Origin: an uncultured Candidatus Peribacteria bacterium
Lineage (GTDB): Bacteria > Patescibacteriota > Gracilibacteria > Peribacterales > Peribacteraceae
DNA length: 40,823 nucleotides
Direction of reading: 5' to 3'
NCBI GenBank assembly: GCA_964541635.1
Contig: CAZIQM010000003.1
Span: forward strand, 1-40,823
Under the pieces are notes generated by a model. The model had not been told where the DNA came from, did not search any database, and worked only from the letters and a program-made list of their open reading frames with translations. Of this stretch, positions 5,956-36,094 are shown piece after piece. The stretch's first letter is position 1. Each line of letters begins with the position of its first letter. Position numbers and translations under genes: made by a program.

Positions 5956-6040
5956 TGGTGGGCCGGGAGGGACTCGAACCCCCGGAGCCGTGAGGCACCG
6001 CGTCTACAGCGCGGCGGAATTGCCACTATCCGACCGACCC
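5956..6040 (-). tRNA. tRNA-Tyr (anticodon GTA), class II with long variable arm, CCA encoded
   Basis: The reverse complement folds as a cloverleaf: acceptor GGGTCGG/CCGGCCC, anticodon stem CCGCG/CGCGG with loop CTGTAGA, T-arm GGGGG-TTCGAGT-CCCTC, 3' ACCA. Confidence 0.9.
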
Positions 6041-6090: not shown

Positions 6091-6903
6091 TCAAACCTTC
6101 CGGAAGGCGCCCATCGTGGCCACGTAGAGCGCGGCGACGCTGCATCCGAGCACGATCCAGACCGCCGGACCGCTGTCCGCTTGCTTCGTTGGCTTGTGTT
6201 CGGTGACGCCCGGTTTCCTCGACGAGCTCGATTTCGCGCCCACGACGTGCGGGTTCACCGCGATGACGTTCGCGCCCACCGGGCTCGGCCCGACGGAGCT
6301 CGATTGCTGCGTGGGGAAGGGGACCGCGGACAAGGACGACGATTGCGCGATCGGCGCGGCGGACGACGTGACGGGCGCGAGCGACGTCGCCGAAGCGACC
6401 GACGACTGGCTCGATGCCGCGCCCCCCGTCGCGGAAATAACGATCTGGCCGCTGAAGTCGGGGGAGGTTTGCGAGATGTAGTCGTACGTTCCTTCGGGTG
6501 CGCCCGCCGGCGCCGTGTAGAAGGCGTCGTCGTTCGGGAACACGCTCGGCGTGCTGAACGGCTTTCCGTCGGACGTCGGGAGCGTGGTCGACGTCAGGAC
6601 GTGGGGGATTTGATCGTCGTTCACCCAACGTATCGTTTGCCCCGGCTTGATCGTGGCAGGGGTGGGATCGGGTCCGTCCTGCTTGAGGTGCACGGTGACG
6701 TCCGGCGTGGGGTTCGTGAGCTGGCCGATGAGGTCGCCGAGGCCGCCGAACGAATAGGCGACGGCGCCGACCATGAGGGCGATGCCCACGGCTGCCGCCG
6801 GCGCGCGCGACACGCGGATCGGGCGGCGGTCATCCGTTTTCGCGCGGACGGGAACGATCTGCTCGTCCTCGGTGGATTGCCAGTGCGGATGCATGGGCGT
6901 CAT
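6091..6903 (-). CDS. Membrane-anchored surface protein with a degenerate cupredoxin-like domain, a Ser-rich linker and a C-terminal sorting-signal-like tail
   Basis: Start chosen at ATG 6903 (ATGA overlap with the upstream stop); the track start at 6930 is also possible. N-terminal TM AAVGIALMVGAVAYSF. Cupredoxin-like strands IKPGQTIRWVNDDQIPHVL ... PEGTYDYISQTSPDFSGQIVI. C-terminus DSGPAVW + TM + FRKV. Confidence 0.6.
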   Translation of the reverse strand: MTPMHPHWQSTEDEQIVPVRAKTDDRRPIRVSRAPAAAVGIALMVGAVAYSFGGLGDLIGQLTNPTPDVTVHLKQDGPDPTPATIKPGQTIRWVNDDQIPHVLTSTTLPTSDGKPFSTPSVFPNDDAFYTAPAGAPEGTYDYISQTSPDFSGQIVISATGGAASSQSSVASATSLAPVTSSAAPIAQSSSLSAVPFPTQQSSSVGPSPVGANVIAVNPHVVGAKSSSSRKPGVTEHKPTKQADSGPAVWIVLGCSVAALYVATMGAFRKV

Positions 6904-8267
6904 CGGGGAAGGGCGGAACTGGCCGTCCATTGGCGGCGGAAGGCGAAGGCCGTGCCGAGGACCGCGGAGACGCCGACCATGGCGGCGACCCAGGATCCCG
7001 GTCCGGATTCACCCGACACCGAACCGTCGGTGTAGGGGGCGTTGCCCTGCGGGCCTTCGATCAGGTTGCCGGACAAGGGCGACGTCGACGTCGCGGGATT
7101 GCCGATCGTGACGGCCACTTCCTGGCTGAAGTCGCTCTCGGCGCCCGAAGCGTTCACGGCGCGGACGGCGAAGTAGTAGGTCATGCCGACAGGCAACGCG
7201 CGGATCGTCACGGTTTGCGCTTCCTTGTCGACGCTGCGCTGCTGGAGGTAGCGGCCGGAGATGGAGCCGTAGTAGAGCTTGTAGCCGGTCACTTCGGCGG
7301 AGGGCAGCGGGTTCCACGCGAGGAAGGCGGAGCTGCCTTCGGTGGTCACGCGCAGGGCTTGCACTTGGAGCTTCGAGAACACGACCGGCGCCGCCGGGAC
7401 CGACGACGAGGAAGACGACGCCGAGGAGACGGCGGGCTTCGAGGAGGTCGCGGCGGTCGACGAGGGAGCGGACGATGCCGGCGCGGACGAGACCGCCGGC
7501 GCGGCGGAGGACGCCGTGGCGCCCGTGGAGGTCGCGACGACCGGGACGACCGGGACGACCGAGGCGACGGACGAGGCGGAGGAGCCCGACGCGGCGAAGC
7601 GGACGGCGAGCGCGCCCTGGACCGCGGAGGCGACGTTACGTTCCTTGTCGCCGTCTTTCGCGAACGCGCCCGTGTGGGCGGTGTCGGCTGCGATGGCGTC
7701 GTAGTACGAGAGGACCGTGCCGTTCGCCGGGACGGATTTCACCGTGAGGGTGATGCGCGCCAGGACGACTTTTTCGTCTTTCACCGGTTCCGTCGAGGAA
7801 GCGCTGACCTTGATGTAGTTGTCGGCGCTGGAGAAATCGCCTTCGCCCGGGACCGGAACGGCGAACGCCTTCGACAGTTCGAGCGTCTTCCCTTCGAGGA
7901 CGTTCGAATCGTAGCCGATCCACACGCGGTAGCGCGTGATCGCTTCCTTCTTGGGATTGTGCATCACGAGGTCCATGTCGAGCGTGTCGCCCACTTTCAG
8001 GACCGGCGTTTGCTTGCTCAGGGGGTCGCGCACCTCATAGCTGGGGCACGGCAAGGCGGAACCTTCCGTCAGGACCGTGATGCCGTCGATCTGCGGGATC
8101 TCGCCGCCGAACGTTTCGCTCGCGGCCGCGTGGTCGGCGTCGACGCAGTGCGGGCGCAGCTCGAACACGGTTTCGCCGGGCGTTTGCGCCGAGGCCGCCG
8201 CGGGGGCGAGCGGGAGCAACGCCACGAGGGCGGAGAGGCCGAGCCGGAGCGCGTGGGTGTGTTTCAT
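6900..8267 (-). CDS. Secreted/anchored cohesin-like + fibronectin type III protein with a C-terminal sorting-signal-like tail
   Basis: Start trimmed to ATG 8267 (MKHTHALRLGLSALVALLPLAPAAASAQ is a signal peptide). Cohesin-like block at about aa 85-225 (KVGDTLDMDLV...RVWIGYDSNVLEG...VVLARITLTVKSVPANGTVLSY). S/A/P/V linker. FN3 at about aa 296-388 (AFLAWNP...GYKLYY...LPVGMTYYFAVRAVNASGAES). Tail ESGPGSW + TM + FRRQ. Confidence 0.65.
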   Translation of the reverse strand: MKHTHALRLGLSALVALLPLAPAAASAQTPGETVFELRPHCVDADHAAASETFGGEIPQIDGITVLTEGSALPCPSYEVRDPLSKQTPVLKVGDTLDMDLVMHNPKKEAITRYRVWIGYDSNVLEGKTLELSKAFAVPVPGEGDFSSADNYIKVSASSTEPVKDEKVVLARITLTVKSVPANGTVLSYYDAIAADTAHTGAFAKDGDKERNVASAVQGALAVRFAASGSSASSVASVVPVVPVVATSTGATASSAAPAVSSAPASSAPSSTAATSSKPAVSSASSSSSSVPAAPVVFSKLQVQALRVTTEGSSAFLAWNPLPSAEVTGYKLYYGSISGRYLQQRSVDKEAQTVTIRALPVGMTYYFAVRAVNASGAESDFSQEVAVTIGNPATSTSPLSGNLIEGPQGNAPYTDGSVSGESGPGSWVAAMVGVSAVLGTAFAFRRQWTASSALPR

Positions 8268-8286
8268 TGTGTGTGCGTGTGTGTTG
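8268..8286. repeat. Imperfect GT/CA dinucleotide tract filling the dockerin-cohesin intergenic spacer
   Basis: tgtgtgtgcgtgtgtgttg on the plus strand, CAACACACACGCACACACA on the coding strand, immediately 5' of the ATG at 8267. No Shine-Dalgarno. Confidence 0.8.
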
Positions 8287-8610
8287 TCAGCGCGAGAGGA
8301 TTCCGCGGAGGACGCGAATGGCGTCGTCGACGCCCAGGATGCCGTTGCCGTTCGGGTCCGCCGCCAGTTCCTGGGGCGTGGCCGTCCGGTAGCCTTGCGC
8401 GATTTCGAGGATGACGATGGCGTCGGCGGCATCCACGGTGCCGTCCGCGTTCACGTCGCCGCGCGGGGCGTCCGTGGCGAGGGATCCCGCGATGGTCCGG
8501 AGGTTGCCCGCCGTTTGCATGCCGAGCGCGAACGACGCCGTCACCGCGAGAAGGCCCAGCGGAAGCAGGGTGGTGATGCGTTTGCGCAGCGTCGTGGGGA
8601 GTGTGGACAT
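8287..8610 (-). CDS. Small dockerin-domain protein with an N-terminal signal peptide or anchor
   Basis: 107 aa. Hydrophobic N-terminus RITTLLPLGLLAVTASFALG, then two EF-hand-like dockerin repeats: GDVNADGTVDAADAIVILEIAQG and ADPNGNGILGVDDAIRVLRGIL. Confidence 0.7.
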   Translation of the reverse strand: MSTLPTTLRKRITTLLPLGLLAVTASFALGMQTAGNLRTIAGSLATDAPRGDVNADGTVDAADAIVILEIAQGYRTATPQELAADPNGNGILGVDDAIRVLRGILSR

Positions 8611-8736
8611 TTCCCATCATTGTACCCAAAAATCGCGTTTTCTTCAATCCGCGTGTCATTGACGGGATTTGAATATGGTTCCTAGTCTTATCCTTGTTTT
8701 GCCCGTGTCGAAGCCACGAACGCGTATACTGGCGCT

Positions 8737-9702
8737 GTGACCTCGATCACGCTCATGACCGGCGAGAACGCGTACGCCATCCGCGCCGAAAAACGCCGTT
8801 GGATCGAGGAGTTTTCGAAGAAGCACGGCCCGGACAACATCGTCCGGCTCGACGGGAAGGGGCTCACCGTCCGCGATCTGCTCGACGAAGTCGGCGTGAT
8901 GCCGTTTTTGTCCGAGAAACGTTTGGTCATCGTGGACGGCGTCCCGAAGGCGACGAAGGAGGAGATGCAGGCCCTCGAGACGTCGATCCACCCGGCGACC
9001 GTGCTGCTCTTCGTCGATCCGTCGCCCGACAAACGCTTGGGCGGTACCAAGCAACTGCTCGCCATGGCCGCCTCAAAGGAATTCCCGGCCGTGAAAGGAC
9101 CGAAGTTGCAGCAGTGGATCGCGGGCGAGGCCCAGCGGCTCGGCATGGCGCTCGAACGCGGCGCGGCGGAGACGCTCGTGGAACGCTTGGGCGATGACCA
9201 AGGTGCGATCGCCACCGAACTCGAGAAACTGTCGCTGGCGGTGGCCGGGCGTCCGCTGTCCGCCGCTGACGTCGACCTGCACACGATCCCGACGGACGAA
9301 GGGGTCGTATGGACGATGACGGACCTCGTGTCGGCGGGAAAGAAGAAGGAAGCACTGGCCTACGCGAAACGTTTGCTCGAACGCGGCTCCGACGCCTACG
9401 GGCTGTGGGCGATCCTCTTGTCGATGCTCAAGAACGTGCTTCTGGTCCGTGCCGCCGTCGACGACCGCCTGTCGTCGCCCAGGGACATCGCGGAGCGCAC
9501 GGGCGTGCATCCGTTCGCGCTACGGTCGCTCCAGTCGTACGCGGCGTCATGCCCCCGCGCGGAGTTGGAGCGCGCCGTGCGATGGGCCGTGGAAGCGGAC
9601 GTGCGTCTCAAGACCGGCGGCTACCGCGCCACCGACGAATCGCCGCAGGAATTGCACGCGCTCATCGACCGCTTCCTCGCGCGCATGCCCGCGAACCGTT
9701 AA
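8737..9702 (+). CDS. holA: DNA polymerase III subunit delta
   Basis: GTG start. Layout typical of HolA: ITLMTGENAYAI...MPFLSEKRLVIVDG..., a second domain with LQQWI...A.RLGMALERGAAETLVERLGDDQGAIATELEKLSL, and a C-terminal helical domain. Confidence 0.7.
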   Translation: MTSITLMTGENAYAIRAEKRRWIEEFSKKHGPDNIVRLDGKGLTVRDLLDEVGVMPFLSEKRLVIVDGVPKATKEEMQALETSIHPATVLLFVDPSPDKRLGGTKQLLAMAASKEFPAVKGPKLQQWIAGEAQRLGMALERGAAETLVERLGDDQGAIATELEKLSLAVAGRPLSAADVDLHTIPTDEGVVWTMTDLVSAGKKKEALAYAKRLLERGSDAYGLWAILLSMLKNVLLVRAAVDDRLSSPRDIAERTGVHPFALRSLQSYAASCPRAELERAVRWAVEADVRLKTGGYRATDESPQELHALIDRFLARMPANR

Positions 9703-10103
9703 GCCTGGTTGATCTGGTCGAGGAGTCCCTCCGCGGCCTGCACCTCCGTGGCGCGCGCTTCGGCTTCGGTCGTTTGCCGCGCCTCCGAGCGCTGTTTTCG
9801 TTCCTCGCTCGTCTGTTCGACGCTCTTCGCCGGTTCTTCTCCGGACGCGGGCGTGCCCGAGTATTTGGCGTCGATGGCGGCGAGCTGCTCTTTTTCGCGC
9901 GAGAGGATGTCCTGCAGCTTCGCGAGCTGCTCCGGCGTCATCACCGGCAGGATTTCGATCCAATACTTCCGCTCGTCGTCGTTCATGCTCTCCGAGGCCA
10001 CGATCAAATCGACGAGCCCGCCGAATTTCGCCCGGACGTCGTCGGGGACGACGATGGGGATCGGTCCTGAGCCCGTTGAAGACGCGTCATCGGCCATGGG
10101 CAC
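9699..10103 (-). CDS. Hypothetical acidic protein with a C-terminal charged coiled region
   Basis: 134 aa downstream of greA on the same strand. Motif NDDERKYWIEILPVMTPEQLAKLQDILSREKEQL. I recognise no family. Confidence 0.55.
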   Translation of the reverse strand: MPMADDASSTGSGPIPIVVPDDVRAKFGGLVDLIVASESMNDDERKYWIEILPVMTPEQLAKLQDILSREKEQLAAIDAKYSGTPASGEEPAKSVEQTSEERKQRSEARQTTEAEARATEVQAAEGLLDQINQA

Positions 10104-10799: not shown

Positions 10800-11657
10800 A
10801 TGCGGTCCATGCATCGCGTGTTTTCCGGCGCCCTGGCGGCGCTCTGCATGGTTTGTCCCTTGGCCCACGCCGCGTCGGGCATCACGTTGCCGGACCTGTC
10901 GGCGGCGCAACGCGCGGTGGACGACCTGGGATCGGACCTTGCCCGCGACGAAGCGTCGGCGTCATTTTACGAAGACCAGGAGCTGTTCCCGGTCGTCGAG
11001 ACGCAGGCGGATTCCGCCATCGAGGAACAACGCGACGGCCGCACCGCGGAATTTTTGACGATCCGCGTCGGCGCGAAGGACGTGACGTTGCGCGACGTCC
11101 CCACGAAGGAGTGGTTCGCGCCGTACGTCCGCGACATCGCGGAGCTCGGTCTCGTCTCGGGCTACCGCGACGCGCTGGGCATGCCCACGGGGCAATTCGG
11201 CCCCGCCGATCCCGTCACGCTCGAGCAGGTCGCGAAAGTCGCGGTGCTCGCGTCCGGCGTCGACGCCACCGCGTGCCCGCTCCCGCCCGCGAACCTTTCC
11301 GCGTCCGGCGCGTGGAGCGCGTCGTACGTTTCGTGCGCCGAGAGGGCGCAGTGGGCCGTGTTCAGCGATCCCGCCGCCGACCTGCGCCGGCCCGCGACCC
11401 GCGAAGAAGTCGTCATGACGATGCTGCAGGCGTTCAAGAGGGAATTCGACGTCGACACGGCGTCGCTCACGTTCGCCGACGTCGAAAAAACGTCCGCGTT
11501 CGCGCCGGCCATCGCCAAGGCGGCGACCGACGGGATCGTGTCGGGCTACACGGACCGGGAGGGGAACCTCACCGGGCTCTTCGGGCCGAAGAACGACGTG
11601 ACGCGCGCAGAGTTCTCGAAAATCGTCAGCATCGTGCTGCAGCTGTACGCGAAGTGA
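10800..11657 (+). CDS. Secreted S-layer-homology (SLH) domain protein
   Basis: Start trimmed to ATG 10800 (MRSMHRVFSGALAALCMVCPLAHA is a signal peptide). SLH-like repeats: WFAPYVRDIAELGLVSGYRD...GQFGPADPVTLEQVAKV, a weaker central one, and FAPAIAKAATDGIVSGYTDREGNLTGLFGPKNDVTRAEFSKIV. Confidence 0.7.
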   Translation: MRSMHRVFSGALAALCMVCPLAHAASGITLPDLSAAQRAVDDLGSDLARDEASASFYEDQELFPVVETQADSAIEEQRDGRTAEFLTIRVGAKDVTLRDVPTKEWFAPYVRDIAELGLVSGYRDALGMPTGQFGPADPVTLEQVAKVAVLASGVDATACPLPPANLSASGAWSASYVSCAERAQWAVFSDPAADLRRPATREEVVMTMLQAFKREFDVDTASLTFADVEKTSAFAPAIAKAATDGIVSGYTDREGNLTGLFGPKNDVTRAEFSKIVSIVLQLYAK

Positions 11658-14870: not shown

Positions 14871-16139
14871 TTAGATCGGTAAGGCTTCCAGCTTGATCGC
14901 CGGGCGATCCTCCTGCTTCTGGTGCTCCCCGACGTCCATGTCTTCGCCCGTCGCCGCGTCGATTTCCTTCGCGGAGATGATGAGGCGGCGCAGGGTGGTG
15001 CCCACCGGCGTGCAGGTCATGAGCGTCGCGATGCGTTTATTGAGCGGTTGGTCGAGGACCGTCACGTCGCTCGGGAGGATTTCCTTCTTCGTTTCGATCA
15101 CGTAGCGGTATTTGTCGCCGCCGTGGTACACCCAGAATTCGTCGCCCACCTGCAATTCCCCGAGGCGCGCGAAGATCGATTTGTATCCGCCGGGCGCCCA
15201 CGGGAAGTACGAGCTGTGGCCCGTGAGGAAGAAGTTGCCGGCTTGGCCCGGCTCCGCCGTTCCCGGGTAGTGGACGACGCCTTGTTCGAGTCCGTGCTGG
15301 ATGTCGGTTTCGAGCTGCTTCCAGTCCTCGCGCACGAGGGAATCCGTCGGCAGGGTCACGATCGGCGCGCGCAGGTCGAGGCCCGGGATGATGAGGATGT
15401 CTTCGGGCGGGCCCACGAGCGGCAGGTGCGCCGCCAAACCTTCGTCGGCGTCGCCCGCCGTGGGCAGCACCGGGACTTGGCGGAGTTTTTCCGCGAGCGA
15501 CTTCTGCGCGGAAGCGGAACGGTCGAGGTGCGTGAATTCGAGGATAGGTTCGATGCGCGCCGACGCGATGGCGCCGAAGCTTTCGTAGTTCATCGCCGAG
15601 AAGAGCACCGCGAAGATCGCGGCGAAGGTGCCGCCGAAGCGCACGATGTCGAGCGCGAAGAGCGTCCCGCGGCTGTACTGCTTCACGCGTTTGCGGCTGG
15701 CCGGCACGAGCACGGGCTGCGTGAGGAACCGCCCGAACGAGCGGATCGCCGTCTTGAAATCGCCGAGGATGGTGGACGAAGCGTCGAAGCCCCCTTCGAG
15801 GCTCGCGCGCAATTGGCGTTCGCCTTCCTGCAGCACGCCCTTGGCGGCGACGAGCGTGCCGCGCTCGGCTTCGGCCAACGCTTCGGCGCAGGACTCGCGC
15901 ACCGCGCGGAGGTTCTCGCCGATGCGCAGGGCGGCGTGTGCGCGCTGCACCGAGGGGAGTTCGGAAATGTCCTCCGCCGGTTCGTCCGGCAAGCCCCACT
16001 GGATCGCGTCGAAAGCGCTGGTTTCTTCCTCGATCGGCATCGCCGGCACGGGCTTTTCCGCCGGCGTGTCCGACGGAAGGATGATGTTGCCGTCGGAGTC
16101 GTATCGGGCGCGCTTCATGCGGGTCGGATCGTGGTTCAT
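14871..16139 (-). CDS. Sortase-family transpeptidase with a long N-terminal cytoplasmic extension
   Basis: Catalytic His in FFLTGHSSY, Cys in ATLMTCTP (TLxTC motif), Arg in LRRLIISA. A single TM (FGGTFAAIFAVLFSAM) follows about 170 residues with no recognisable family. Confidence 0.8.
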   Translation of the reverse strand: MNHDPTRMKRARYDSDGNIILPSDTPAEKPVPAMPIEEETSAFDAIQWGLPDEPAEDISELPSVQRAHAALRIGENLRAVRESCAEALAEAERGTLVAAKGVLQEGERQLRASLEGGFDASSTILGDFKTAIRSFGRFLTQPVLVPASRKRVKQYSRGTLFALDIVRFGGTFAAIFAVLFSAMNYESFGAIASARIEPILEFTHLDRSASAQKSLAEKLRQVPVLPTAGDADEGLAAHLPLVGPPEDILIIPGLDLRAPIVTLPTDSLVREDWKQLETDIQHGLEQGVVHYPGTAEPGQAGNFFLTGHSSYFPWAPGGYKSIFARLGELQVGDEFWVYHGGDKYRYVIETKKEILPSDVTVLDQPLNKRIATLMTCTPVGTTLRRLIISAKEIDAATGEDMDVGEHQKQEDRPAIKLEALPI

Positions 16140-17338: not shown

Positions 17339-17899
17339 TTATAGCCTATAGGTTTTGCCGCCTTTGTCGGACCATTCGTAGATCAGTTCGGAATCGAGGC
17401 TTATGAACAGTTTTTTCACGGACAGTTGGATCGTATCGGCCACGGCTTCGTCATCATTCGTCATCGTGATCGGACCGATATCGATCAGCCCTTTTACCAG
17501 CATCCGCTTATCGCCTTGTTCACAGCGGAATCCCTCCAAAGGAATGGGGGATTCGTAGATATATTTTTGGCCTGCTTTGAAGACGCGCAGGTTCGTGATG
17601 TCGATCCGATCATCCCTGCAGAGATCCATGTATATTTTGACATCGCCGTTTTCCGCGAACAGCAATCGCGAATTCGCGCCACGGTAGTAGGGTTTGGCGC
17701 CTTCGAGTTCGAAATGCCAATCGAGCTGTACGTCCTCGCCGTCGATGTTCGCTTCGCCGCCGGATACCACCGGTTGGATAGCTGGGAATACGTGGCTCGG
17801 CGAGGTCCTGGGGGCGAAGTGCAGATTGAAAAGGTATGCGATCGGCAACGCGACCAACACGATCCCGGCAGCCGTGTTCATGAATTTGTCGATCGTCAT
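17339..17899 (-). CDS. Small membrane-anchored hypothetical protein (candidate immunity/partner of the upstream giant protein)
   Basis: 186 aa. The ATG overlaps the stop of the upstream gene (ATGA 17896-17899). One N-terminal TM (AAGIVLVALPIAYLF), then a domain of about 150 aa. About 50% GC in my sample counts. Confidence 0.6.
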   Translation of the reverse strand: MTIDKFMNTAAGIVLVALPIAYLFNLHFAPRTSPSHVFPAIQPVVSGGEANIDGEDVQLDWHFELEGAKPYYRGANSRLLFAENGDVKIYMDLCRDDRIDITNLRVFKAGQKYIYESPIPLEGFRCEQGDKRMLVKGLIDIGPITMTNDDEAVADTIQLSVKKLFISLDSELIYEWSDKGGKTYRL

Positions 17900-20800
17900 A
17901 GCTTTTTCGTAAGGAATGAAACCAGTTCGTCGAGCATGAGTTTGGATTGTTCCCTGTCGGAGTCATCGATGCTCAGGTGATGTACCCCGTCGAATGTCAT
18001 TTCCTTTTGGTCTTCGTACGCCCAATTGCGACCGAGGATATAGGTTCCATGGGCGGGTACGCCATGTTTCATGAGCAGGTCGATGTTGTCTATGAGGCTA
18101 CCGTCGTCGAACGGTGTCAGGCCCAGGAGCACACTTTCAGCCACTTGTTCGATCGTGACCGTAGAACTCAACTGATACCTGTTGAAGAGCGCGTCCACCG
18201 ATCCTGCGGCCAGTGCCGGCTGGCTCATGCCCGCGTATCCGAGTTGCACCGCGTCGATCACGCCCAGTTTCACGGGAATGCCCGCGTACGTCGGATTGTT
18301 TTCCAGCTCGCTCGCCATGTCGATGGCGGTGCCTCCACCCCAACTGTACCCCGCCATGTCTATCTCGTTCACAGTTCCGGAATTTGGCGAGATGCCTTGG
18401 TTCTTCAGTCGCTCGAACACCACCTCCAAGGTGAGTTGAATGATGAGGAACGTGTTGTGCAGCAGCGGCTCGAACGCCAGGACGACGCGGAATTGCAGGA
18501 TCTCGTATCCCGCGAGTTTCGATTGCACGTATTCCATGCCTATTTTCTTCACGTCTCCATCGATCGTTTGCAAATGGCCGTCGATCAAGATCACCAATTT
18601 CCCGGGGTGCGTGCCGTTTCCGGGTTGGTACTCCATGAGCCCAGCTTGTTTCATGATTTCGTGCTTCAGGGCGTATTCCTGCCCGGACGCGACGGCTTTC
18701 AGCATCGGGATGACCGGCTGCATGCGGTTGATCGTGAGGTCGGCGAGTGCGTCCACTTTCTCGTTCGCGACGTTCACGACTTCCTGGCCGACATCGTACG
18801 CGACGGTCGCGGCCCATACCGCCTTGCGCTTGATAGCCGTGACTTCGCGGACGAGGGACGCCGACAGGCCCACTATTTTGTCTTCGATCCAGTCATCGAC
18901 TTCTGCGGCGATGAGCTTGTTCACCTCGTTCTCGATGCGCACCCACGGGTTCTCCTCCGGCGGAATCGTCGGGATGTAGGATTCGATGACCTGGTCGAGG
19001 ACGCCCTTGCCCGGTTTGATGAGCGGGACCGTCGACTGGTTCACGTTCGGCTTGAAATCGAGGGGCTCGAGTTCCATCTGCGCGCGACCGAACAAGTGTT
19101 CGAACATTTGGTCGAACGTTCCGAACGAAACGTCCGTCGACGCGATTTGGTACGCGCCGAGGTTCATAAATTCTTCTTCCGTTTTCAGCAGGTGGATGTA
19201 GTGGGCTTTCCCGCGGGCGCTGAGGTACGTGTTCATGAATTGCTCGGGCGAAACTGATGTCGCGATCCGCTCCATCGTTCCCGCGAACTCCCCTTCGCCC
19301 GCGTTCGTCCCTTTGTCCCTGTCGTTCGTCGGATCCTGGTCTGTGTCCGCCATGATCGCGTCCACGGCTTTCTCGTACGTTTCGCGGGCGATCGATTCCA
19401 AGCCCGGGCGCCCGAGCGCTTCGCGCGCGGCCACGATCTGCGGGTGGTTCGACGCCATGAGGGCGTCGACCGCGCGCCGGTTCACCGCGGCCAAGCGGTC
19501 CCGATCCGAGGCCGACGAACCGTCGGGATCGTGGCGCGCGAGTTTCCCGAGGCGGCTGTTCGATTCGGTTTGGCCGCCCGCGAACCGCGTGACGATCGAC
19601 ACGATCGGGCGGTCCGACGTGGCATCGGCGGGTGTGCTCGGCGCGCGCACATTCGCGGAGAGCATCAGCGACTGCCCGCCGCCGATCGACGCGGTGAGCG
19701 TCTTTTGCAACGTGCCGCGTTCAGGCTGGCCCGCGTACCAACCCGCGTACACGTCGAACCACAGGGTGCCTCCGCCCATCGCTTCGTTGCGCACCTGGTA
19801 CTTCACGTTCGCGATGTGCCCGGGCGCGGAGAAGACGGGCGATTCGCCCTCGCGGATTTCCGTCACGCCGGGGAAGACGCCTTCCGTTTGGTGCTGTTCG
19901 TACATCTTGAGCATCGACACGTCGACTGTCTCGGGACCCATGGCTGCCGGGGGCAGCACCGATTCCATCGTCGCGCCTTGCTTGGTGCTCACGGATCCCG
20001 TCGCGCCGACCATCCACGTGCCGAACGAAAGGAGCCGCGGTGCCCCCGGCGCGATCACGACCGTGTTCGGGTCGATCTGTCGCACGTAGCCTTCGGGGAA
20101 CCCGGACGTGGTCACGGTTTCGCGCCCCATGTAATCGACCCCCGTCTTCATGATCGTTCCCACCCACGCGATGCTCCCGGATCCCTTCGTGTAGTTGATG
20201 CGGACCATCGTGTATTGGCTCGGGTCCCGCTCTATGTAAAAACGCTTGTCGCCGTTGCCGCTGGGGCTCGAGAGCAAATTCAGCGTCTTCGCCGCCGCGG
20301 CGACGTTCGTCGCCATCGGCACCGACGGCGCAGCCGCGAGCGCGTAGGACGGCGAGGTGAACTGCGTGAGCGCGTCCGGCGAGGCGTCCTGCATCGAGGC
20401 GAGTACCGAGGCTTCGAGGCCTGTCACCTGGACCGGCGTCCGATCCGACGGGCGGAAGAGCACGTCGGTGAACCCGATGTCGTTCTCGTACGTGAAAACC
20501 CCCGCCGCCGGGACGGGCACCGTCGCGATGATGTCGTTGCCGCGGAACACGGTCGCCGACACCGTCATCGCCGGGTTCGCGGGCGTCACGGTCGCACGCA
20601 CGCCGCGCACCATGCCGTCGAAACCCCGCAGGTTCACGTGATTCGCGTAGCTTTGCAGGTTCGCGCTCGTCGCTTCGGCGCCGACAGGAGCCCTCCAGCC
20701 CGCGTCCGGCGCGGTGAGCGTGATCACGTCCTGGATGAGCGTCCGGATTTCCGGAGGGATGGTGGTATCCGCGGCGGCGACCTGCCTGCCTTCCAACGTT

Positions 20801-20985
20801 TCGTACGAGAGACTGCGCGTGGATCGTTCGGGCATGCGGGGTGGGGGAAGATGCGAGCACATCCAACCCCGATCGGAGGTCGCCGACGCGGCGGTGCTTT
20901 GTCCAGTGCCGCGCGCATGCCCACCGATAGGGCTCGCGGGCGTTCCTTCCGCACGAAGCGCGGCTTGAGAATGTTTTATGGTCAT
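17896..20985 (-). CDS. Giant hypothetical protein (about 1029 aa) with a C-terminal alpha/beta-hydrolase (lipase/esterase-like) module
   Basis: The track ORF (to 21243) is trimmed to ATG 20985 so that it does not run through the divergent gene. A later start (ATG 20835) is possible. In-frame GC3 is consistent throughout. Nucleophile elbow IDMAGYSWGGGTAI (nt 18337-18351). I see no signal peptide. Confidence 0.7.
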   Translation of the reverse strand: MTIKHSQAALRAEGTPASPIGGHARGTGQSTAASATSDRGWMCSHLPPPRMPERSTRSLSYETLEGRQVAAADTTIPPEIRTLIQDVITLTAPDAGWRAPVGAEATSANLQSYANHVNLRGFDGMVRGVRATVTPANPAMTVSATVFRGNDIIATVPVPAAGVFTYENDIGFTDVLFRPSDRTPVQVTGLEASVLASMQDASPDALTQFTSPSYALAAAPSVPMATNVAAAAKTLNLLSSPSGNGDKRFYIERDPSQYTMVRINYTKGSGSIAWVGTIMKTGVDYMGRETVTTSGFPEGYVRQIDPNTVVIAPGAPRLLSFGTWMVGATGSVSTKQGATMESVLPPAAMGPETVDVSMLKMYEQHQTEGVFPGVTEIREGESPVFSAPGHIANVKYQVRNEAMGGGTLWFDVYAGWYAGQPERGTLQKTLTASIGGGQSLMLSANVRAPSTPADATSDRPIVSIVTRFAGGQTESNSRLGKLARHDPDGSSASDRDRLAAVNRRAVDALMASNHPQIVAAREALGRPGLESIARETYEKAVDAIMADTDQDPTNDRDKGTNAGEGEFAGTMERIATSVSPEQFMNTYLSARGKAHYIHLLKTEEEFMNLGAYQIASTDVSFGTFDQMFEHLFGRAQMELEPLDFKPNVNQSTVPLIKPGKGVLDQVIESYIPTIPPEENPWVRIENEVNKLIAAEVDDWIEDKIVGLSASLVREVTAIKRKAVWAATVAYDVGQEVVNVANEKVDALADLTINRMQPVIPMLKAVASGQEYALKHEIMKQAGLMEYQPGNGTHPGKLVILIDGHLQTIDGDVKKIGMEYVQSKLAGYEILQFRVVLAFEPLLHNTFLIIQLTLEVVFERLKNQGISPNSGTVNEIDMAGYSWGGGTAIDMASELENNPTYAGIPVKLGVIDAVQLGYAGMSQPALAAGSVDALFNRYQLSSTVTIEQVAESVLLGLTPFDDGSLIDNIDLLMKHGVPAHGTYILGRNWAYEDQKEMTFDGVHHLSIDDSDREQSKLMLDELVSFLTKKL

Positions 20986-21031
20986 ATTCCGCCGCTTCGA
21001 CCGTCTTCGGAAGCGGTGTACACTCGCCCAT

Positions 21032-22111
21032 ATGCAAAACCCCTCACTCCAGCACTTCATCGCCCACGCCCGCTCGAAGGGCATGGACCACCAGACGATC
21101 CGGATGTTGCTCCTGTCGTCCGGGTGGAAAGAGAAGGACATCGTCGAAGCCCTGACCGAAGCCACGCTCGACATGCCGGTGCCCGCGCCGGAAGACCGTG
21201 GCGGCGCCCGCGAAGCCTTCTTCCACTTGCTCGCCTTCGTCACGCTCTACGCGAGCGTCATCAGCGTGCTGTTCCTGCTGTTTGAATTCCTCAACCGCCT
21301 CTTCCCCGATGCCGCCTTCGACTACACGTACTACGACGATTCGTCGTCCATCCGCTGGTTCATGGCGGTGATCATCGTGTCATTCCCTATCTTCGTGTGG
21401 ATGTCGCGCATCATCCAGCGCGAGATCGCGAAATCGCCGGAGCGCGCATGGAGCCCGGTCCGCCGATGGCTCACGTACCTCACGCTCTTTGTCACGGCCG
21501 GCGTGCTCGTCGGGGACGGGATCACGTTGCTTTTCTATTTGCTCCAGGGCGAAATCACGGTCCGCTTCATCCTGAAGGTGCTCGCGGTCCTCGGCGTCGC
21601 GGGCATGGTGTTCAGTTACTATTTCCTGGCGCTCAAGTCATCCGCGAACCGACTCCAAGCGTCGAAGCTCAACCGCGCGTACGGCGCCCCCGCGTGGGTC
21701 ATCGCGATCGCGGTGGTCGTGTGGGGAATGATCGTGGCCGGAACGCCGATGGAACAACGTTTGGTTCGCCTCGACGAGCGCCGCGTGAACGATATGCGCT
21801 CGATCCAGCAGGAAATCTACAACATCGCGTACGAAGGCTCGGATCGCTATAACAACGGCAAGCCGTACACCAGTTTGCCCCATCCGTTGCCCGCGACCTT
21901 GGACGACGTCGTCGCGAAAGCAGTGAACGTCCGGCCGTCTATCACCGATCCTTCGACCGGAGCGGCGTACGAATACGAACCCAAAGCGACGTCGTTCTCG
22001 CTGTGTGCCACGTTCGACACGGCGCAGGACAAGGATTACGACGTCTTCTGGAACCACCCCCTTGGGCGCCATTGCTTCGTGTTCAACGCGCTGGACCCGA
22101 TGACGAAGTGA
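21032..22111 (+). CDS. Multi-pass membrane protein (DUF5671-like) with an N-terminal helical module and a C-terminal extracytoplasmic domain
   Basis: Start trimmed to ATG 21032. N-terminus [33 protein letters not shown], then about 6 TM segments and a tail of about 110 aa with two Cys. 4 nt upstream of prfA. Confidence 0.6.
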
Positions 22112-27939: not shown

Positions 27940-30246
27940 ATGCGGTATTCCTTCTCTACCCGTGCTTGGCTCGCACTCGCGGTCCTCGCGCTCTCGCTCC
28001 CCGTCGGCTTCGCCGGCCTTGGCCAGCTTTTGACGCCGACGCCGATCGTCATCGACGACGGCGCCTCCGCGCCCGCGTTCCAGACCACGGGAACGTGGGT
28101 ATCGCTCCCGATAGGCAATGCCGAACGCTCTTCCTTGCGCTACAGCAGCAAGGGCACGGCCACGTGGACCGCTTCCGTGGCGCCGGGCACCTACGCGGTC
28201 GACGTGTCGGTTCCTCCGCTGCTTCGCGTCGTGCAGCAAACGTATTCCGTGACGGACGGAAGCTCCGTCATCGGCACGTTCATCGTTCCCCGCTACGTGC
28301 CGGGCGATAAGAAGGCGCAGTCGAATTGGATTTCCGGCGTGACCGTGTCGACCGCGAACGGCACCATCGCCGTGACGCTCTCCGTGTCCGCAGGCATCGG
28401 CGTCGCCGATGCCGTCAGGATCACCCCCGTCGCAGGAACTTCCTCGTCTTCCTCCTCGTCGTCGTCCGCGCCCGTCTGCGGCAACAACGAAGTGGAAGGC
28501 CAGGAACAGTGTGACTTCGGCGCGATGAACGGGCAGCCCTGCATGGCTCCCGCCGGCGTGTCGTGCACGTATTGTTCCGCGTCCTGCACGCGAGTCGTCG
28601 TCGACGGAGTCCGCCCCTGGTCCGGCTCTAGCTCGTCACCGGCGCCGGCATGCGGCAATGGCATCGTGGAAGGCCAAGAACAGTGCGACGACGGCGTCGC
28701 GAACGGCACGATGTGTGAATCGGTGATCGGTGGTTCCTGCAGCTATTGTTCCGCGTCGTGCACGCGCGTCATGGTAGGCGGTCGGAGTTCCTCCTCGTCT
28801 TCCGTCTCCTCGTCCGTTTCTTCTTCTTCTTCTTCTTCTTCTTCTTCTTCGTTCGTTTCCTCCTCGTCGTCTTCGATCGCGGGAACGTGCTCGGACGGCA
28901 TCGACAACGACGCCGACGGTGGCGCCGATGTTGCGTCCCTGACGCAGGCGGCTCCGACGGGATCCAAACACCGCAGCACGTTCGTGTCGCGTGATGCATT
29001 CAAGGGCGTTTCGTACATCATGTACCAGGACGAATCGAACGCCGCCCAGACCATCGAGGCGCGCGACGCGAGCAATTCGCTCGTCGCTTCCAAAACGTTC
29101 GATACCACAACCGTGCGGCGCGACGTGTTCGGCTCGCCCGCGATCGACTCGTGGACCCGGATGTTCACGAAACCGTACTATTCCGATTTCACGACGGCGA
29201 ACGCTGACGCCGTGTTCGGGCTCGTCGCCGACAGCACAGTGGCCACCGTCGCGGTCGGCACGGCGGGCACACCGGCGTCTCGCACGGTCAAAGAGTCGAA
29301 AGTCGTACGCTATTCCTCCGACTTGTCGAAGATTGAGGCCGTCCTTTCTACGGGTACGGATCGTTTCCCACATGGTCGCATGTTCGCCACGCCTGACGGC
29401 ACATCGCTCGTGTTGTTCGCGGTCGGCACCGTCAAGCGCATGGAGGTGCCAAATGCCGCGAATGAGTATTCATCGCCGTTCATCCTCGTGATCGATGCCG
29501 CCACCTTCGCGGTGAAGGCCCGTTATGCGGTCGATACGCCCGACATGGCGATCCCGTATCCGTTGTACGTCGGGAACGACAAAGTCGTGTTCGCGCTCAA
29601 CCGCATCAAACAGCCTTTCTACAGCGTCGGCATCTTCGCGAACGCCGAACGCCTGCCCGTCCAGATCGTCGAGTTCATTCCGTCGACGGGCGCCGCTCGC
29701 ACCGTTGACCAGGGCTATAACATCGTCGTGGGCGTCCCGGGCGATCCTCGCGCCCTCTCCGATGGATCCTTTGCGTACCTGACGGTCGCGCAGGAAACAA
29801 AGCAGCCCAACGGACAAAAGACGCAGGTGCCGTATCTCGCCAAGATCGACGTGTCCACGCTTTTGACCGCTGGCGCCGTTCGGCTGCCCTCGGATTACGG
29901 ATTTGGCACGAGGATCATCAAGCTCCTGCCCAACGGATACCTCGCGACGCTCCGCACGCGCCTCGTCGCGCAATCGAACACGCTCGACGAGGAAGTCGTG
30001 CTCTATAAGGCATCGGGTATTTCCGGCATCGTCGCGGAGCAGGCGGCGACTGTTGCCGAAGGAATCATGATGCGATCGCCCGATGCACTTTTCGTTCGCA
30101 CGAACAACGCCGTGCCGCGCAGTCAGCACATGAGTTTCGATCAGACGACCGGAACGTTCTATGACTTCGACGGAGTCAACTTCTCGATGCTCGTCCGAAC
30201 GTTGCGGTCCGATGCGCAGTGCGTCTCGGCCGCGACGCCCGAATGA
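27940..30246 (+). CDS. Secreted mosaic protein: golvesin-C-like N-domain, 2 Cys-rich repeats, poly-Ser linkers, a DNDxDG motif, and a large beta-rich C-terminal domain
   Basis: Signal peptide MRYSFSTRAWLALAVLALSLPVGFAG. N-domain ending GVADAVRITPV. Repeats CGNNEVEGQEQCDFG...CTYCSASCTRV and CGNGIVEGQEQCDDG...CSYCSASCTRV. GTCSDGIDNDADGGAD. About 420 aa of C-terminal domain. Confidence 0.75.
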   Translation: MRYSFSTRAWLALAVLALSLPVGFAGLGQLLTPTPIVIDDGASAPAFQTTGTWVSLPIGNAERSSLRYSSKGTATWTASVAPGTYAVDVSVPPLLRVVQQTYSVTDGSSVIGTFIVPRYVPGDKKAQSNWISGVTVSTANGTIAVTLSVSAGIGVADAVRITPVAGTSSSSSSSSSAPVCGNNEVEGQEQCDFGAMNGQPCMAPAGVSCTYCSASCTRVVVDGVRPWSGSSSSPAPACGNGIVEGQEQCDDGVANGTMCESVIGGSCSYCSASCTRVMVGGRSSSSSSVSSSVSSSSSSSSSSSFVSSSSSSIAGTCSDGIDNDADGGADVASLTQAAPTGSKHRSTFVSRDAFKGVSYIMYQDESNAAQTIEARDASNSLVASKTFDTTTVRRDVFGSPAIDSWTRMFTKPYYSDFTTANADAVFGLVADSTVATVAVGTAGTPASRTVKESKVVRYSSDLSKIEAVLSTGTDRFPHGRMFATPDGTSLVLFAVGTVKRMEVPNAANEYSSPFILVIDAATFAVKARYAVDTPDMAIPYPLYVGNDKVVFALNRIKQPFYSVGIFANAERLPVQIVEFIPSTGAARTVDQGYNIVVGVPGDPRALSDGSFAYLTVAQETKQPNGQKTQVPYLAKIDVSTLLTAGAVRLPSDYGFGTRIIKLLPNGYLATLRTRLVAQSNTLDEEVVLYKASGISGIVAEQAATVAEGIMMRSPDALFVRTNNAVPRSQHMSFDQTTGTFYDFDGVNFSMLVRTLRSDAQCVSAATPE
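28818..28850 (+). repeat. Perfect (TTC)11 trinucleotide microsatellite, read as TCT = Ser in frame
   Basis: ttc x 11 read directly at 28818-28850, inside the poly-Ser linker of the 27940..30246 gene. Confidence 0.95.
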
Positions 30247-34232: not shown

Positions 34233-35156
34233 TCACGCCGCCTCCCGCACGAGCAACGCCGCCAGCATGTCGTGGTACTGCTCGAATTCCGGCACGCCGC
34301 CGTGTTCGATGAGTCCCGGGGGCGCGTTCAACTCGATGACGTACCACCGTCCGTTTTTGCCGCGGCACATGTCGATCGAATAGATGCGCGAGGGGAACCG
34401 CGCGAACTTCGCGTCGACCGCCCGCGCGAGGGCGAGCTCCTCGGGCGGGATCTTGTCCTTCGGGATCGGGAAGTACGACCCGCCGAGCGACACGTTACTC
34501 ACGAGCGAGCCTTTTTTCGGGATCTTGTATTCGCAGTAGGAAAATTCCCCGCCCACCACGACGAGCCGCGAGTCGTGCGTGCCTTTCATGATGCCGGGAA
34601 TGCCGTCGGACGTGTCGATGAATTCCTGGAGGAGCAGGGGATAGGCGTGGTTGTGCGAGAGCACCGTCGCGCGCGGCCCGATGATCACGTCGCGCCCGAG
34701 CGCGCCGTGCGGCGGCTTCGCCACCACGAAGTCCGACGGGATTTCGCCGATGCGCCGTTCGAGCTCTTGTTTCGAGGACACGAGGATCGCGCGGGGCATG
34801 ACGTCGGCGAGGATGTCTTGCGTGAGTTCCTTCTTGAAGCAGATCTCGTCGAACGCGGGATCGTTGATCACGCCGTCGAAATCGTCGAAGTGGAGGTCTT
34901 CGCCCTTGTTCAGCAGGACGTCCGGTTCGAGGATGTCGTTTTTCCCGGCGAAATCCGCGCCGTCCAATTCCCAGTACTTCGAGAACCGGCCTTTGCCGAG
35001 GTACGTCGTGGGGCCGCGCGCGATGCAGAAACGCGCCCCCAGCGCCGCGACCTTCGCCGCGAGCTCGCGGTAGGAACGCGCGTACTCGCCGCCGTTCTCG
35101 ACGAACGGCGCCCCGTCGGGTTCGGGATCGGTGAAGTAGACGGCGACGGTCTTCAT
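34233..35156 (-). CDS. ATP-grasp ligase family protein (paralog A; RimK/YheC-D-like)
   Basis: 307 aa. ATP-grasp core pattern: FVVAKPPHGALGRDVII, YPLLLQEFIDTSDGIPGI, HDSRLVVVGGEF, KGSLVSNVSLGGS, YSIDMCRGKNGRWYVIELNAPPGL. Confidence 0.7.
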   Translation of the reverse strand: MKTVAVYFTDPEPDGAPFVENGGEYARSYRELAAKVAALGARFCIARGPTTYLGKGRFSKYWELDGADFAGKNDILEPDVLLNKGEDLHFDDFDGVINDPAFDEICFKKELTQDILADVMPRAILVSSKQELERRIGEIPSDFVVAKPPHGALGRDVIIGPRATVLSHNHAYPLLLQEFIDTSDGIPGIMKGTHDSRLVVVGGEFSYCEYKIPKKGSLVSNVSLGGSYFPIPKDKIPPEELALARAVDAKFARFPSRIYSIDMCRGKNGRWYVIELNAPPGLIEHGGVPEFEQYHDMLAALLVREAA

Positions 35157-36094
35157 CCGTTGGCTGCGGAAACGAGCGCTTCAACGAGCAAGTCCTGGTA
35201 ACGGGGGTACGTGACGCCGTAGTCGCGCACCGAAAGCCCCGGCTTGCTGTTGAGTTCGATGATGTACCACCGTCCGGAGACGTCGCGCCCGAGGTCGACG
35301 CAGAACACGCGGTGCTTCGACATCGGCTTGAACCGCTCGTCGACCGCCCGAACGATTTTCATCGCGTCGGCCGGCCGCTGCTCGGGCAGCACTTCGATTT
35401 CCTTGCCGCCCTTCGACACGTTCGAGATCAACGAGCCTTCCTTCGCCTTGCGCGCGTACGTGAGCGCGATTTCGCCGTCGACGAGGATCGTCCGCAGGTC
35501 GCCGACGCCGTCGATGATGCCGGGAATCCCGCCGGACGTGTCGACGTACTGCTGCACGATGAGCGGGTATGCGTGTTCGGCGCGCAGCACCTCCTCGGGC
35601 GGACCGATGACGACGCCCTTCGCTTCGGCGCCGTCGACCGGTTTGGCGACCGCCATGGGCGAGGGCCAGTTTTCCAACGCCGCCTCCAGCCCCGCGCGGT
35701 CCTTCACTTCGAGCGTCTTCGGCGACAGGTCGGGGAACATCGCGACCGTCGCCCTCTTGTCGACGCAGATGCGGTTCATCTCGGCGTCATTGAGGAGTTT
35801 CGAGCCGGCGTCGCCGACGAAGTAACCCTTGTCGTAAATGAGATCGAGGTCGATCTCTTCCTCGTGGCGGACGAATTGCCCGTCCTCGAATTCCCAGTAG
35901 CCCTTGAAACGGTTGCCGCCGAGGAAGGTCCGCTGTTCGCGGACGATGCAAAACCTCGCGCCTTTTTCCTCGACCAACCGCGCCACTTGGTCGTACGCGA
36001 TGCGGAATTCCTCGATGTTGAACGGGTAATCCGTCAGCTTCGGGGCGTCGAAAAAAACGCCTATTCGTTTCCGGGTCTGTTCGTGCGCTGGCAC
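35153..36094 (-). CDS. ATP-grasp ligase family protein (paralog B)
   Basis: GTG start. 313 aa, collinear with paralog A: MAVAKPVDGAEAKGVVI, YPLIVQQYVDTSGGIPGI, GDLRTILVDGEI, EGSLISNVSKGGK, FCVDLGRDVSGRWYIIELNSKPGL. The stop overlaps the start of paralog A (ATGA). Confidence 0.7.
   Translation of the reverse strand: MPAHEQTRKRIGVFFDAPKLTDYPFNIEEFRIAYDQVARLVEEKGARFCIVREQRTFLGGNRFKGYWEFEDGQFVRHEEEIDLDLIYDKGYFVGDAGSKLLNDAEMNRICVDKRATVAMFPDLSPKTLEVKDRAGLEAALENWPSPMAVAKPVDGAEAKGVVIGPPEEVLRAEHAYPLIVQQYVDTSGGIPGIIDGVGDLRTILVDGEIALTYARKAKEGSLISNVSKGGKEIEVLPEQRPADAMKIVRAVDERFKPMSKHRVFCVDLGRDVSGRWYIIELNSKPGLSVRDYGVTYPRYQDLLVEALVSAANG

Follow-up and report, generated by a model that had tools for sequence, protein, structure and literature searches.

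We analysed a 40.8-kb stretch of DNA (63% G+C; hereafter “the window”) from a member of Candidatus Peribacteria, within the Candidate Phyla Radiation (CPR), and found on its minus strand three adjacent open reading frames (ORFs), g1, g2 and g3, which encode a small dockerin protein, a cohesin-FN3 protein and a copper-less cupredoxin protein. We give about an even chance to the reading that the three genes form one operon and that their products form a three-protein envelope complex, held together by a calcium-dependent lock in which the dockerin of g1 docks into the cohesin of g2 on the same cell. The binding of cohesin and dockerin, the topology of the proteins, the packing of the subunits and their role in the cell are what we infer from sequence. 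The three genes and a promoter-like site are located as follows.

8287-8610, minus strand: g1, 107 aa (ORF list)
6900-8267, minus strand: g2, 455 aa, with its ATG at 8267 (MKHTHALR...) and its stop at 6900-6902
6091-6903, minus strand: g3, 270 aa, with its start at 6903 (MTPMHPHWQ...)
8619-8647, minus strand: promoter-like sigma-70-type site TTGAAG-17-TACAAT (consensus scan, a pattern match only)

An initial annotation, made from the letters alone, had described three co-directional genes with a 19-nt spacer and then an ATGA overlap, and this agrees with the ORF coordinates. The stop codon of g1 begins at 8287, 19 nt from g2, and the ATG of g3 overlaps the TGA of g2. The start of g3 at 6903 is supported by homologues that open with the same M-x-x-x-HPHW. 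The G+C content at third codon positions is 0.87 in g2 and g3, like that of the window's other genes. The promoter-like site lies directly 5′ of g1, inside a 126-nt spacer that is shared with the divergent gene holA; the consensus scan found four such patterns in the region, where 0.4 were expected. A tRNA-Tyr gene (anticodon GTA; 5956-6040, minus strand) is encoded about 50 nt 3′ of g3 on the same strand. A scan for intrinsic terminators revealed no clear one, and the tRNA may be co-transcribed with g3 or may mark the end of the operon.

We scanned one genome per GTDB species for g2 and detected a relative in 187 species representatives. The best 80 of these 187 loci, nearly all titled Peribacteria or Peregrinibacteria, were analysed further by building hidden Markov models (HMMs) of g1, g2 and g3 and searching them against all ORFs of these loci. 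Separately, 134 database relatives of g2 were found, and the one with an organism name is from Candidatus Peribacteraceae. The order and orientation of g1, g2 and g3 are kept in 77 of the 80 loci, down to about 30% identity of g2, so the synteny in relatives that the initial annotation had proposed as a check was found. No g1 was detected in L031, which is cut off at its start, or in L064 and L069, and g3 is missing only at contig ends (L072 and L077). The 4-nt overlap of g2 and g3 also occurs in the gene calls of L002, L003 and L005. When the neighbourhoods of 82 loci were compared, 69-77 of them retained a block comprising GreA, a 134-aa protein (hyp134), holA (encoded on the other strand) and the trio, and the genes downstream of the trio vary. 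Based on this synteny, the trio is a core, single-copy operon of the Peribacteria class, and its features are far beyond chance. The hyp134 gene (9699-10103, minus strand) has no Pfam family, lies between GreA and holA in 71 of the 82 loci, and encodes the motif ...ERxYWIxxLPxMTPxQ...

The product of g1 consists of little more than a membrane segment and one dockerin.

8518-8577, minus strand: transmembrane helix or signal anchor of g1 (residues 12-31)
8299-8463, minus strand: dockerin module of g1 (residues 50-104)
8422-8457, minus strand: calcium loop 1 of g1, DVNADGTVDAAD, followed by the helix AIVILEIAQG
8323-8358, minus strand: calcium loop 2 of g1, DPNGNGILGVDD, followed by the helix AIRVLRGIL

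Residues 51-91 match the Pfam family Dockerin_1 (PF00404) at 24.4 bits (the curated cut-off is 22.9; the Pfam cut-offs quoted below are likewise curated). Among 41 relatives of g1, 32 match Dockerin_1 individually and 22 also match EF-hand models. Searched against PDB sequences, g1 is most similar to the dockerin 4uyp_B (E = 5.6e-4), then to 2y3n_B and 6kgc_B. A profile built from the 41 relatives retrieved 8ajy_B first (E = 2.6e-7) and then a series of further dockerins that includes 2y3n_B, 6kgc_B and 4uyp_B. Both calcium loops are canonical, and together with their helices they make up the two tandem EF-hand-like repeats, of about 22 residues each, that define a dockerin; of 80 g1 sequences, 76-79 retain the loop residues D52, D63, D85 and D96. 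The N-terminus is basic (LRKR) and precedes a single 20-residue hydrophobic segment, which leads into a juxtamembrane motif, S-F-x-x-G-I-Q-T-A-G-D. F27 and G30 of this motif are invariant in all 80 sequences, and more than 75% of the sequences retain T33, A34 and G35. The dockerin begins only about 20 residues from the membrane helix (about 15 residues past the juxtamembrane motif), a distance so short that it would be held just outside the membrane of the cell that makes it.

The product of g2 carries the putative partner of this dockerin, in a longer and more complex architecture.

8187-8267, minus strand: signal peptide of g2 (residues 1-27, ending in ASA before Q; n-h-c pattern read by eye)
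7584-8045, minus strand: cohesin domain of g2 (residues ~75-228; Pfam, AlphaFold2 and Foldseek)
7380-7583, minus strand: Ser/Ala/Pro/Val low-complexity linker of g2 (residues 229-296)
7092-7379, minus strand: FN3 domain of g2 (residues 297-392)
6903-7025, minus strand: C-terminal module of g2 (residues 415-455), comprising V-S-G-E-S-G-P, a transmembrane helix and AFRRQ

A conserved strand, FELRPHC (residues 33-39), and an invariant pair of cysteines, Cys41 and Cys74, precede the cohesin. The match of residues 91-195 to the Pfam family Cohesin (PF00963) is marginal in the window copy (26.3 bits, cut-off 24.1). At E ≤ 0.01, however, 17 of 32 relatives of g2 match Cohesin (best E = 3.3e-9), and no competing Pfam family was found over this region in the 32 relatives. 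An AlphaFold2 model of g2, computed from an alignment of 32 sequences, has predicted local distance difference test (pLDDT) values above 90 over residues ~72-225 and of about 90 or more over residues 300-390. Its best PDB match by Foldseek is 2w1n (E = 6.4e-11), the cohesin-FN3 double module of the Clostridium perfringens protein GH84C. The model aligns to the cohesins 5lxv, 4ums, 2vn5 and 2ccl with template modelling (TM) scores of 0.61-0.68, which identifies the domain as a cohesin fold, a nine-stranded beta-sandwich (jelly roll). Within it, the nearly invariant residues R112, R114, W116 and D120 alternate along one strand, a pattern that hints at a conserved surface through which the acidic dockerin might be contacted.

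The linker that follows the cohesin is disordered in the model (pLDDT below 50), is about 70 residues long, and varies in length across the family. Some relatives of g2 (P0113 and P0115-P0118) reach 500-560 aa. P0113, the sole long relative that was aligned, has long Cys-rich insertions between cohesin and FN3, showing that the linker can take extra extracellular domains. Precomputed hits to DUF4215 on P0116-P0118 and to EB on P0115 suggest that these proteins carry similar insertions. The FN3 domain is the most conserved part of g2, with a clear Pfam match (fn3, residues 302-386, 37.5 bits, cut-off 25) that is shared by 30 of the 32 relatives, and invariant columns that include Y329, Y332, Y333, G338, Y340, R369, E377, S381 and E383. 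A GNPATSTSPL motif separates it from the C-terminal module, in which G438, A442 and Q446 are invariant and A435, T439, R444 and R445 are nearly so. In total, g2 has a single cohesin and lacks a carbohydrate-binding module (CBM).

One use of such a protein would be as a minimal scaffoldin, whose cohesin recruits enzymes encoded elsewhere, with g1 serving as a placeholder, competitor or regulator. Enzyme recruitment is the canonical use of cohesins, and enzyme complexes outside cellulosomes exist, as exemplified by the C. perfringens GH84C module that is the top structural match of g2. We nevertheless consider this explanation very improbable. Pfam scans of 38 other ORFs across the window detected no glycoside hydrolase or CBM. 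In 985 kb of sequence (the window and related loci) we found no dockerin calcium-loop pattern outside g1 proteins, no dockerin-bearing enzyme, and no match to the cohesin-domain HMM outside g2 proteins, even at E ≤ 10. Each locus has one dockerin and one cohesin. A word-based homologue search with g1 returned solely small stand-alone proteins, mostly of 103-116 aa, and the close homologues are all about 107 aa long. No PF00404 was found on the listed homologues of g2, and the small g1-like proteins carry only the dockerin, so fusions that would link the two families in one protein were not seen.

The g1 profile was also searched exhaustively against 1.84 billion representative sequences, which yielded 2459 matches at E ≤ 1e-3, of which 201 reach E ≤ 1e-10. 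Of the 149 top-ranked hits analysed in detail, 88 are small proteins (≤180 aa), nearly all of which align to the bulk of the profile, its transmembrane segment included, and their best dockerin domains have a median score of 76 bits. The remaining 61 are much larger, carry 3-13 dockerins in tandem and have a median of 36 bits per domain. We considered the latter as extra partners in Peribacteria and rejected them, as they are rich in Lys, the sole one with a source name comes from Clostridia, and their per-domain scores are roughly half as high. Two hits to the g1 profile, P0214 and P0187, have a type IV pilin signal start (KKGFTLIELLAVIVIL...) followed by 3-7 tandem dockerins. They look like dockerin-bearing pilins of Lys-rich, probably low-GC organisms and unrelated to this locus.

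The trio does not qualify as a cellulosome, since g2 has only a single cohesin, a CBM is lacking and the dockerin is not carried by an enzyme. Within the 985 kb covered, the cohesin-dockerin pair looks self-contained. This agrees with the initial annotation, which had described a self-contained pair outside any cellulosome context, with no glycoside hydrolase or CBM nearby.

The third protein, g3, has a transmembrane helix at either end and a cupredoxin-like domain in between.

6745-6903, minus strand: predicted cytoplasmic N-tail and transmembrane helix 1 (residues 34-53) of g3 (family alignment)
6430-6711, minus strand: cupredoxin-fold domain of g3 (residues 65-158)
6094-6198, minus strand: C-terminal module of g3 (residues 236-270), comprising H-K-P-x-x-Q-A-D-S-G-P, transmembrane helix 2 and RKV

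The N-tail has the motif M-x-x-x-H-P-H-W-Q-S-T-[DE]-D-E ... V-P-V ... S-R-x-P-A-A, and P6, W8, E14, R33, A36, A37 and G40 are invariant in the family alignment. Residues 64-156 of the window copy score 15.8 bits against the Pfam family Cupredoxin_1, below the cut-off of 27, and 21 of 29 relatives of g3 match this family. Despite the low score, the structure model confirms the cupredoxin fold: pLDDT values are 94-97 over residues 70-155 (AlphaFold2), and Foldseek aligns the model to amicyanin and plastocyanin with TM scores of 0.67-0.75 and root-mean-square deviations of 1.7-3 Å. We considered whether g3 is a type 1 blue copper protein and rejected this, because the His-Cys-His-Met ligand set is absent across the family. 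Among 78 sequences, the position of the ligand Cys is Ser in 75, neither the C-terminal (second) His nor the Met ligand occurs in any, and the N-terminal His is kept in 41. The fold is followed by a Ser-rich linker and then a conserved IPxNPYTVG motif. The tail has the family consensus K-P-x-x-[QN]-[PTA]-E-[TS]-G-P, helix, R/K, and it shares with the tail of g2 a common plan of [ED]-[ST]-G-[PA], a hydrophobic helix and basic residues.

These results match the domain organization that the initial annotation had proposed for the three proteins. It had described g1 as a signal or anchor plus one two-repeat dockerin in 107 aa (now backed by Pfam, the family profile and the canonical loops), g2 as a signal-peptide protein with a cohesin-like domain, an S/A/P/V linker, an FN3 domain and a C-terminal anchor (backed by Pfam, AlphaFold2 and Foldseek), and g3 as a membrane protein with a cupredoxin-like domain and the same type of C-terminal anchor as g2 (backed by AlphaFold2 and Foldseek and by comparison of the tails). 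The profile searches for Cohesin and Dockerin that it had called for support both assignments.

In the complex that we propose, all three proteins would be inserted in the cytoplasmic membrane: g1 by its N-terminal helix, with the N-terminus inside; g2 by its C-terminal helix, after export via the signal peptide; and g3 by a helix at each end. Outside the membrane, the dockerin of g1 would bind two Ca2+ ions and plug into the single cohesin at the distal end of g2. Docking would occur on the same cell, because the dockerin is only about 20 residues from the membrane, and it would tie the distal head of g2 back to the membrane via the flexible Ser/Ala/Pro linker. As the third subunit, g3 would contribute the only conserved cytoplasmic motif (HPHWQSTDDE) and present its cupredoxin fold, which lacks the copper site, on a Ser-rich linker much like that of g2. 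The subunits may also pack against each other within the membrane via conserved small and polar residues of their helices. Invariant residues in or next to the helices (F27 and G30 in g1; G438, A442 and Q446 in g2; R33, A36, A37 and G40 in g3) argue that the helices are retained and functional and are not discarded targeting signals. The conserved helices and the conserved cytoplasmic motif of g3 support the proposed complex.

The co-divergence of the proteins was assessed by distance-matrix (mirror-tree) correlation, with the divergence of holA and GreA regressed out. The g1 dockerin correlates with the g2 cohesin (0.37), the g2 C-terminus (0.41) and the g3 cupredoxin domain (0.37) but not with the neighbouring hyp134 (-0.04), values that have no valid p-value. 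This pattern fits a trio that co-evolves as a unit.

Several points weigh against the proposed complex. The Dockerin_1 and Cohesin scores of the window copies barely exceed their cut-offs. The distance correlation does not single out the dockerin and cohesin from the rest of the trio, and its significance could not be validly assessed. The N-terminus of g1 could be a cleaved signal peptide with the invariant Gly at position -1, and a signal peptidase cut after G30 would leave the dockerin no longer held by the membrane. Likewise, the tails of g2 and g3 could be cleaved sorting signals, which would change the topology. Finally, g1 is missing or altered in some lineages. In L064 and L069, holA and g2 are present with no g1 ORF in the ~200 nt between them, the g1 of L076 lacks the dockerin repeats, and the first calcium loop is degenerate in the g1 of L045, L047 and L067. 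All six lineages keep nearly all family-conserved residues of g2, indicating that g2 and g3 can persist without an intact neighbouring dockerin. We detected no correlated decay, i.e., no loss of conserved g2 residues in the six lineages, and take this as a mild counter-indication. The intervals of the missing or dockerin-less g1 are L064:5785-5992, L069:5921-5971 and L076:5645-5914, and the g1 variants with intact g2 and g3 are useful natural controls for binding studies.

The absence of visible change in g2 in these lineages is the main caution in favor of an alternative in which there is no pairing. In that case, g1 would be a small Ca2+-binding, EF-hand-like membrane protein, and the trio would be joined by its helices or not at all. 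The EF-hand matches of g1 relatives are consistent with this, as is co-variation of the g1 dockerin that is no stronger with the cohesin than with g3. However, Dockerin_1 is the best family for 32 of the 41 g1 relatives, and solved dockerins are the top profile matches. There is also a low chance that a lone dockerin would be encoded beside a lone cohesin in 77 of 80 species, translationally coupled, without an interaction. To our knowledge, all characterized cohesins bind dockerins, which counts further against this alternative, and we regard it as improbable.

The tails of g2 and g3 bear on another explanation, in which they are sorting signals that are cleaved by a sortase after [ST]-G, so that the proteins are linked to peptidoglycan or polymerized. 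Membrane-held g1 would then dock wall-linked g2 and form a membrane-to-wall tether. Both tails are tripartite, with a motif, a hydrophobic stretch (20 residues followed by RRQ in g2; 21 residues followed by RKV in g3) and basic residues, and this organization is unique to g2 and g3 in the window. Their family consensus sequences, [QN]-P-E-[TS]-G-P in g3 and V-P-G-E-[TS]-G in g2, resemble LPXTG. A sortase gene (14871-16139, minus strand; Pfam Sortase, 80.6 bits; TLMTC motif) lies 6.3 kb away and is a candidate processing enzyme for the two tails, and sortase A was reported in Ca. Peribacter riflensis genomes (PMC4736985). In the window sortase, about 240 aa precede the membrane segment, an unusual length for an N-terminal extension. 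On the other hand, the motifs of the window copies, SGESG in g2 and QADSG in g3, have neither the L nor the P of LPXTG, and a search of NCBIfam found no sorting-signal model for g2 or g3 at E ≤ 1. The g2 helix and AFRRQ are nearly invariant, a degree of conservation that would be atypical of a sorting signal that is cut off, and this points to a helix that is retained and functional. Moreover, a sortase gene is near the trio in just 1 of the 82 loci and so is not syntenic. We consider the sortase route, together with the tether that it would create, unlikely.

The initial annotation had suggested that the pair forms a dedicated surface tether for appendage assembly, cell-cell attachment or host attachment, and not for polysaccharide degradation. 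The non-cellulosomal part of this suggestion stands, and the attachment part became less likely given the short tether of the dockerin, the invariant transmembrane residues and the conserved, single-copy core set. In an attachment device, the cohesin would be displayed on a long surface stalk and the pair would bind another cell, a host or an appendage. A symbiotic lifestyle and many surface proteins were inferred for Peribacteria (PMC4736985), dockerin-domain and FN3-domain envelope proteins of a saccharibacterial epibiont (Southlakia) are essential in transposon sequencing (PMC10633639), and the long g2 linker tolerates inserted Cys-rich modules, all of which could suit such a device. Yet the sole dockerin lies below the wall, so close to its own membrane that it would be nearly inaccessible to the cohesin of another cell. 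The genes of the trio occur in single copy and are under strong conservation, whereas strain variation in Ca. Peribacter riflensis involves large exported proteins that were proposed to function in attachment (PMC4736985). We recognized no host-binding or lectin module in the trio. Attachment is, in our judgement, quite unlikely. For the membrane-held complex we propose a constitutive structural or morphogenetic function in the envelope instead of polysaccharide degradation, and probably not host-specific adhesion, because of the purifying conservation, the single copy and the housekeeping neighbourhood (holA, GreA).

A more specific version of this role is a lineage-defining envelope “clasp,” an idea that we consider improbable as it stands. 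Here g2 (docked on g1) and g3 would be flexible loops with both ends fixed in the membrane. When the lock closes on calcium binding, strands of peptidoglycan, or some other polymer of the envelope, could become enclosed in the protein loop, and the cytoplasmic HPHW motif of g3 would link to an intracellular partner. If true, this would be a non-covalent membrane-to-wall tether or a morphogenetic scaffold for ultra-small, wall-bearing cells, and a new use of cohesin and dockerin in building a cell's own envelope, not in recruiting enzymes.

Several other genes of the window are relevant to the cell surface or lack assignments.

~10800-11657, plus strand: SLH-domain (S-layer homology) protein with a signal peptide, adjoining the GreA-holA-trio block
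17339-17899, minus strand: 186-aa ORF without a Pfam hit, which follows the 1115-aa ORF
17896-21243, minus strand: 1115-aa ORF without a Pfam hit, with a lipase-like G-Y-S-W-G-G motif in its C-terminal part
27940-30246, plus strand: 768-aa secreted protein with long poly-Ser runs, two Cys-rich repeats and a weak DUF4215 hit
34233-36094, minus strand: two adjacent RimK/YheC-type ATP-grasp genes (307 and 313 aa) beside tRNA-Leu

An SLH protein is encoded within 6 kb of the trio, on either side, in 14 of the 82 loci. The 1115-aa and 186-aa ORFs are just upstream of mnmA and the sortase gene. The 768-aa protein resembles the cysteine-rich large extracellular proteins of Ca. Peribacter riflensis (PMC4736985).

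Cellulosomes, and a small number of secreted enzyme complexes, are the main settings in which cohesin-dockerin pairs are known, as the element that holds the parts together. Against this background, a minimal pair (a lone dockerin and a lone cohesin) that is built into a set of three membrane proteins and retained as a core operon throughout a class of CPR bacteria points to a housekeeping role in the envelope. Peribacteria are uncultured and have almost no characterized envelope components, and the trio offers a testable handle on their surface architecture. The pair is also small and natural and may be orthogonal to known pairs, and thus may serve protein engineering.

Like cellulosomal type I pairs (C. 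thermocellum 1ohz and 2ccl, Ruminococcus flavefaciens 5lxv), the trio combines two EF-hand-like repeats of the form D-x-N-x-D-G-x-V-x-x-x-D with a beta-sandwich cohesin. Unlike them, it has just one cohesin and lacks both a CBM and enzymes that carry dockerins. The two repeats of the g1 dockerin are also conserved differently (ILEIAQGY in one, DDAIRIL in the other), and this would argue against a symmetric dual-binding mode. The closest structural parallel is C. perfringens GH84C (2w1n), which has the same tandem of cohesin then FN3 and likewise uses cohesin and dockerin outside cellulose degradation. In C. perfringens, however, the modules are on large secreted glycoside hydrolases and assemble enzymes, whereas the trio includes no enzyme, its dockerin makes up a separate membrane protein of 107 aa, and each of the partners is equipped with a transmembrane helix.

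The tails of g2 and g3 are like those of sortase LPXTG substrates in having a [TS]-G motif, a hydrophobic stretch and a basic end, with a sortase gene in the same window. They differ in that the window motifs do not read LPXTG itself, the helix and tail are conserved in sequence, and no sorting-signal model matches. The g3 domain has the same Greek-key fold as amicyanin-type cupredoxins (1id2, and 4hci of Bacillus anthracis; TM scores of ~0.72-0.75). Unlike blue copper proteins, three of its four type 1 copper ligands are absent across the family, and the domain is best read as a scaffold or binding domain and not as an electron carrier.

Within Patescibacteria, Southlakia epibionticum (a saccharibacterium) has the essential envelope proteins SEML1_0315 (dockerin) and SEML1_0890 (FN3) (PMC10633639), another case in this phylum where envelope proteins with dockerin and FN3 domains matter for growth. 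Unlike those of the trio, their genes are non-adjacent, and no cohesin is mentioned. In the full-text literature on cohesin and dockerin in Peregrinibacteria, CPR or Patescibacteria and on sortase in Peribacteria, we found no description of the operon. Non-cellulosomal cohesin- and dockerin-like modules were catalogued across the three domains of life by Peer et al. (2009), as cited in PMC6461901 (ref. 52), and the same article describes a hypothetical “planctosome” with cohesin and dockerin modules in non-cellulolytic organisms. As in the trio, these modules belong to organisms that do not degrade cellulose, and their function is assigned from context only. In contrast, they occur on scattered multi-domain proteins, whereas the trio is a fixed three-gene core operon of a whole class. 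What is new relative to the known systems is the stand-alone mini-dockerin, the membrane anchoring of all partners, the fixed copper-less cupredoxin partner, and the class-wide occurrence of the set as a CPR core operon.

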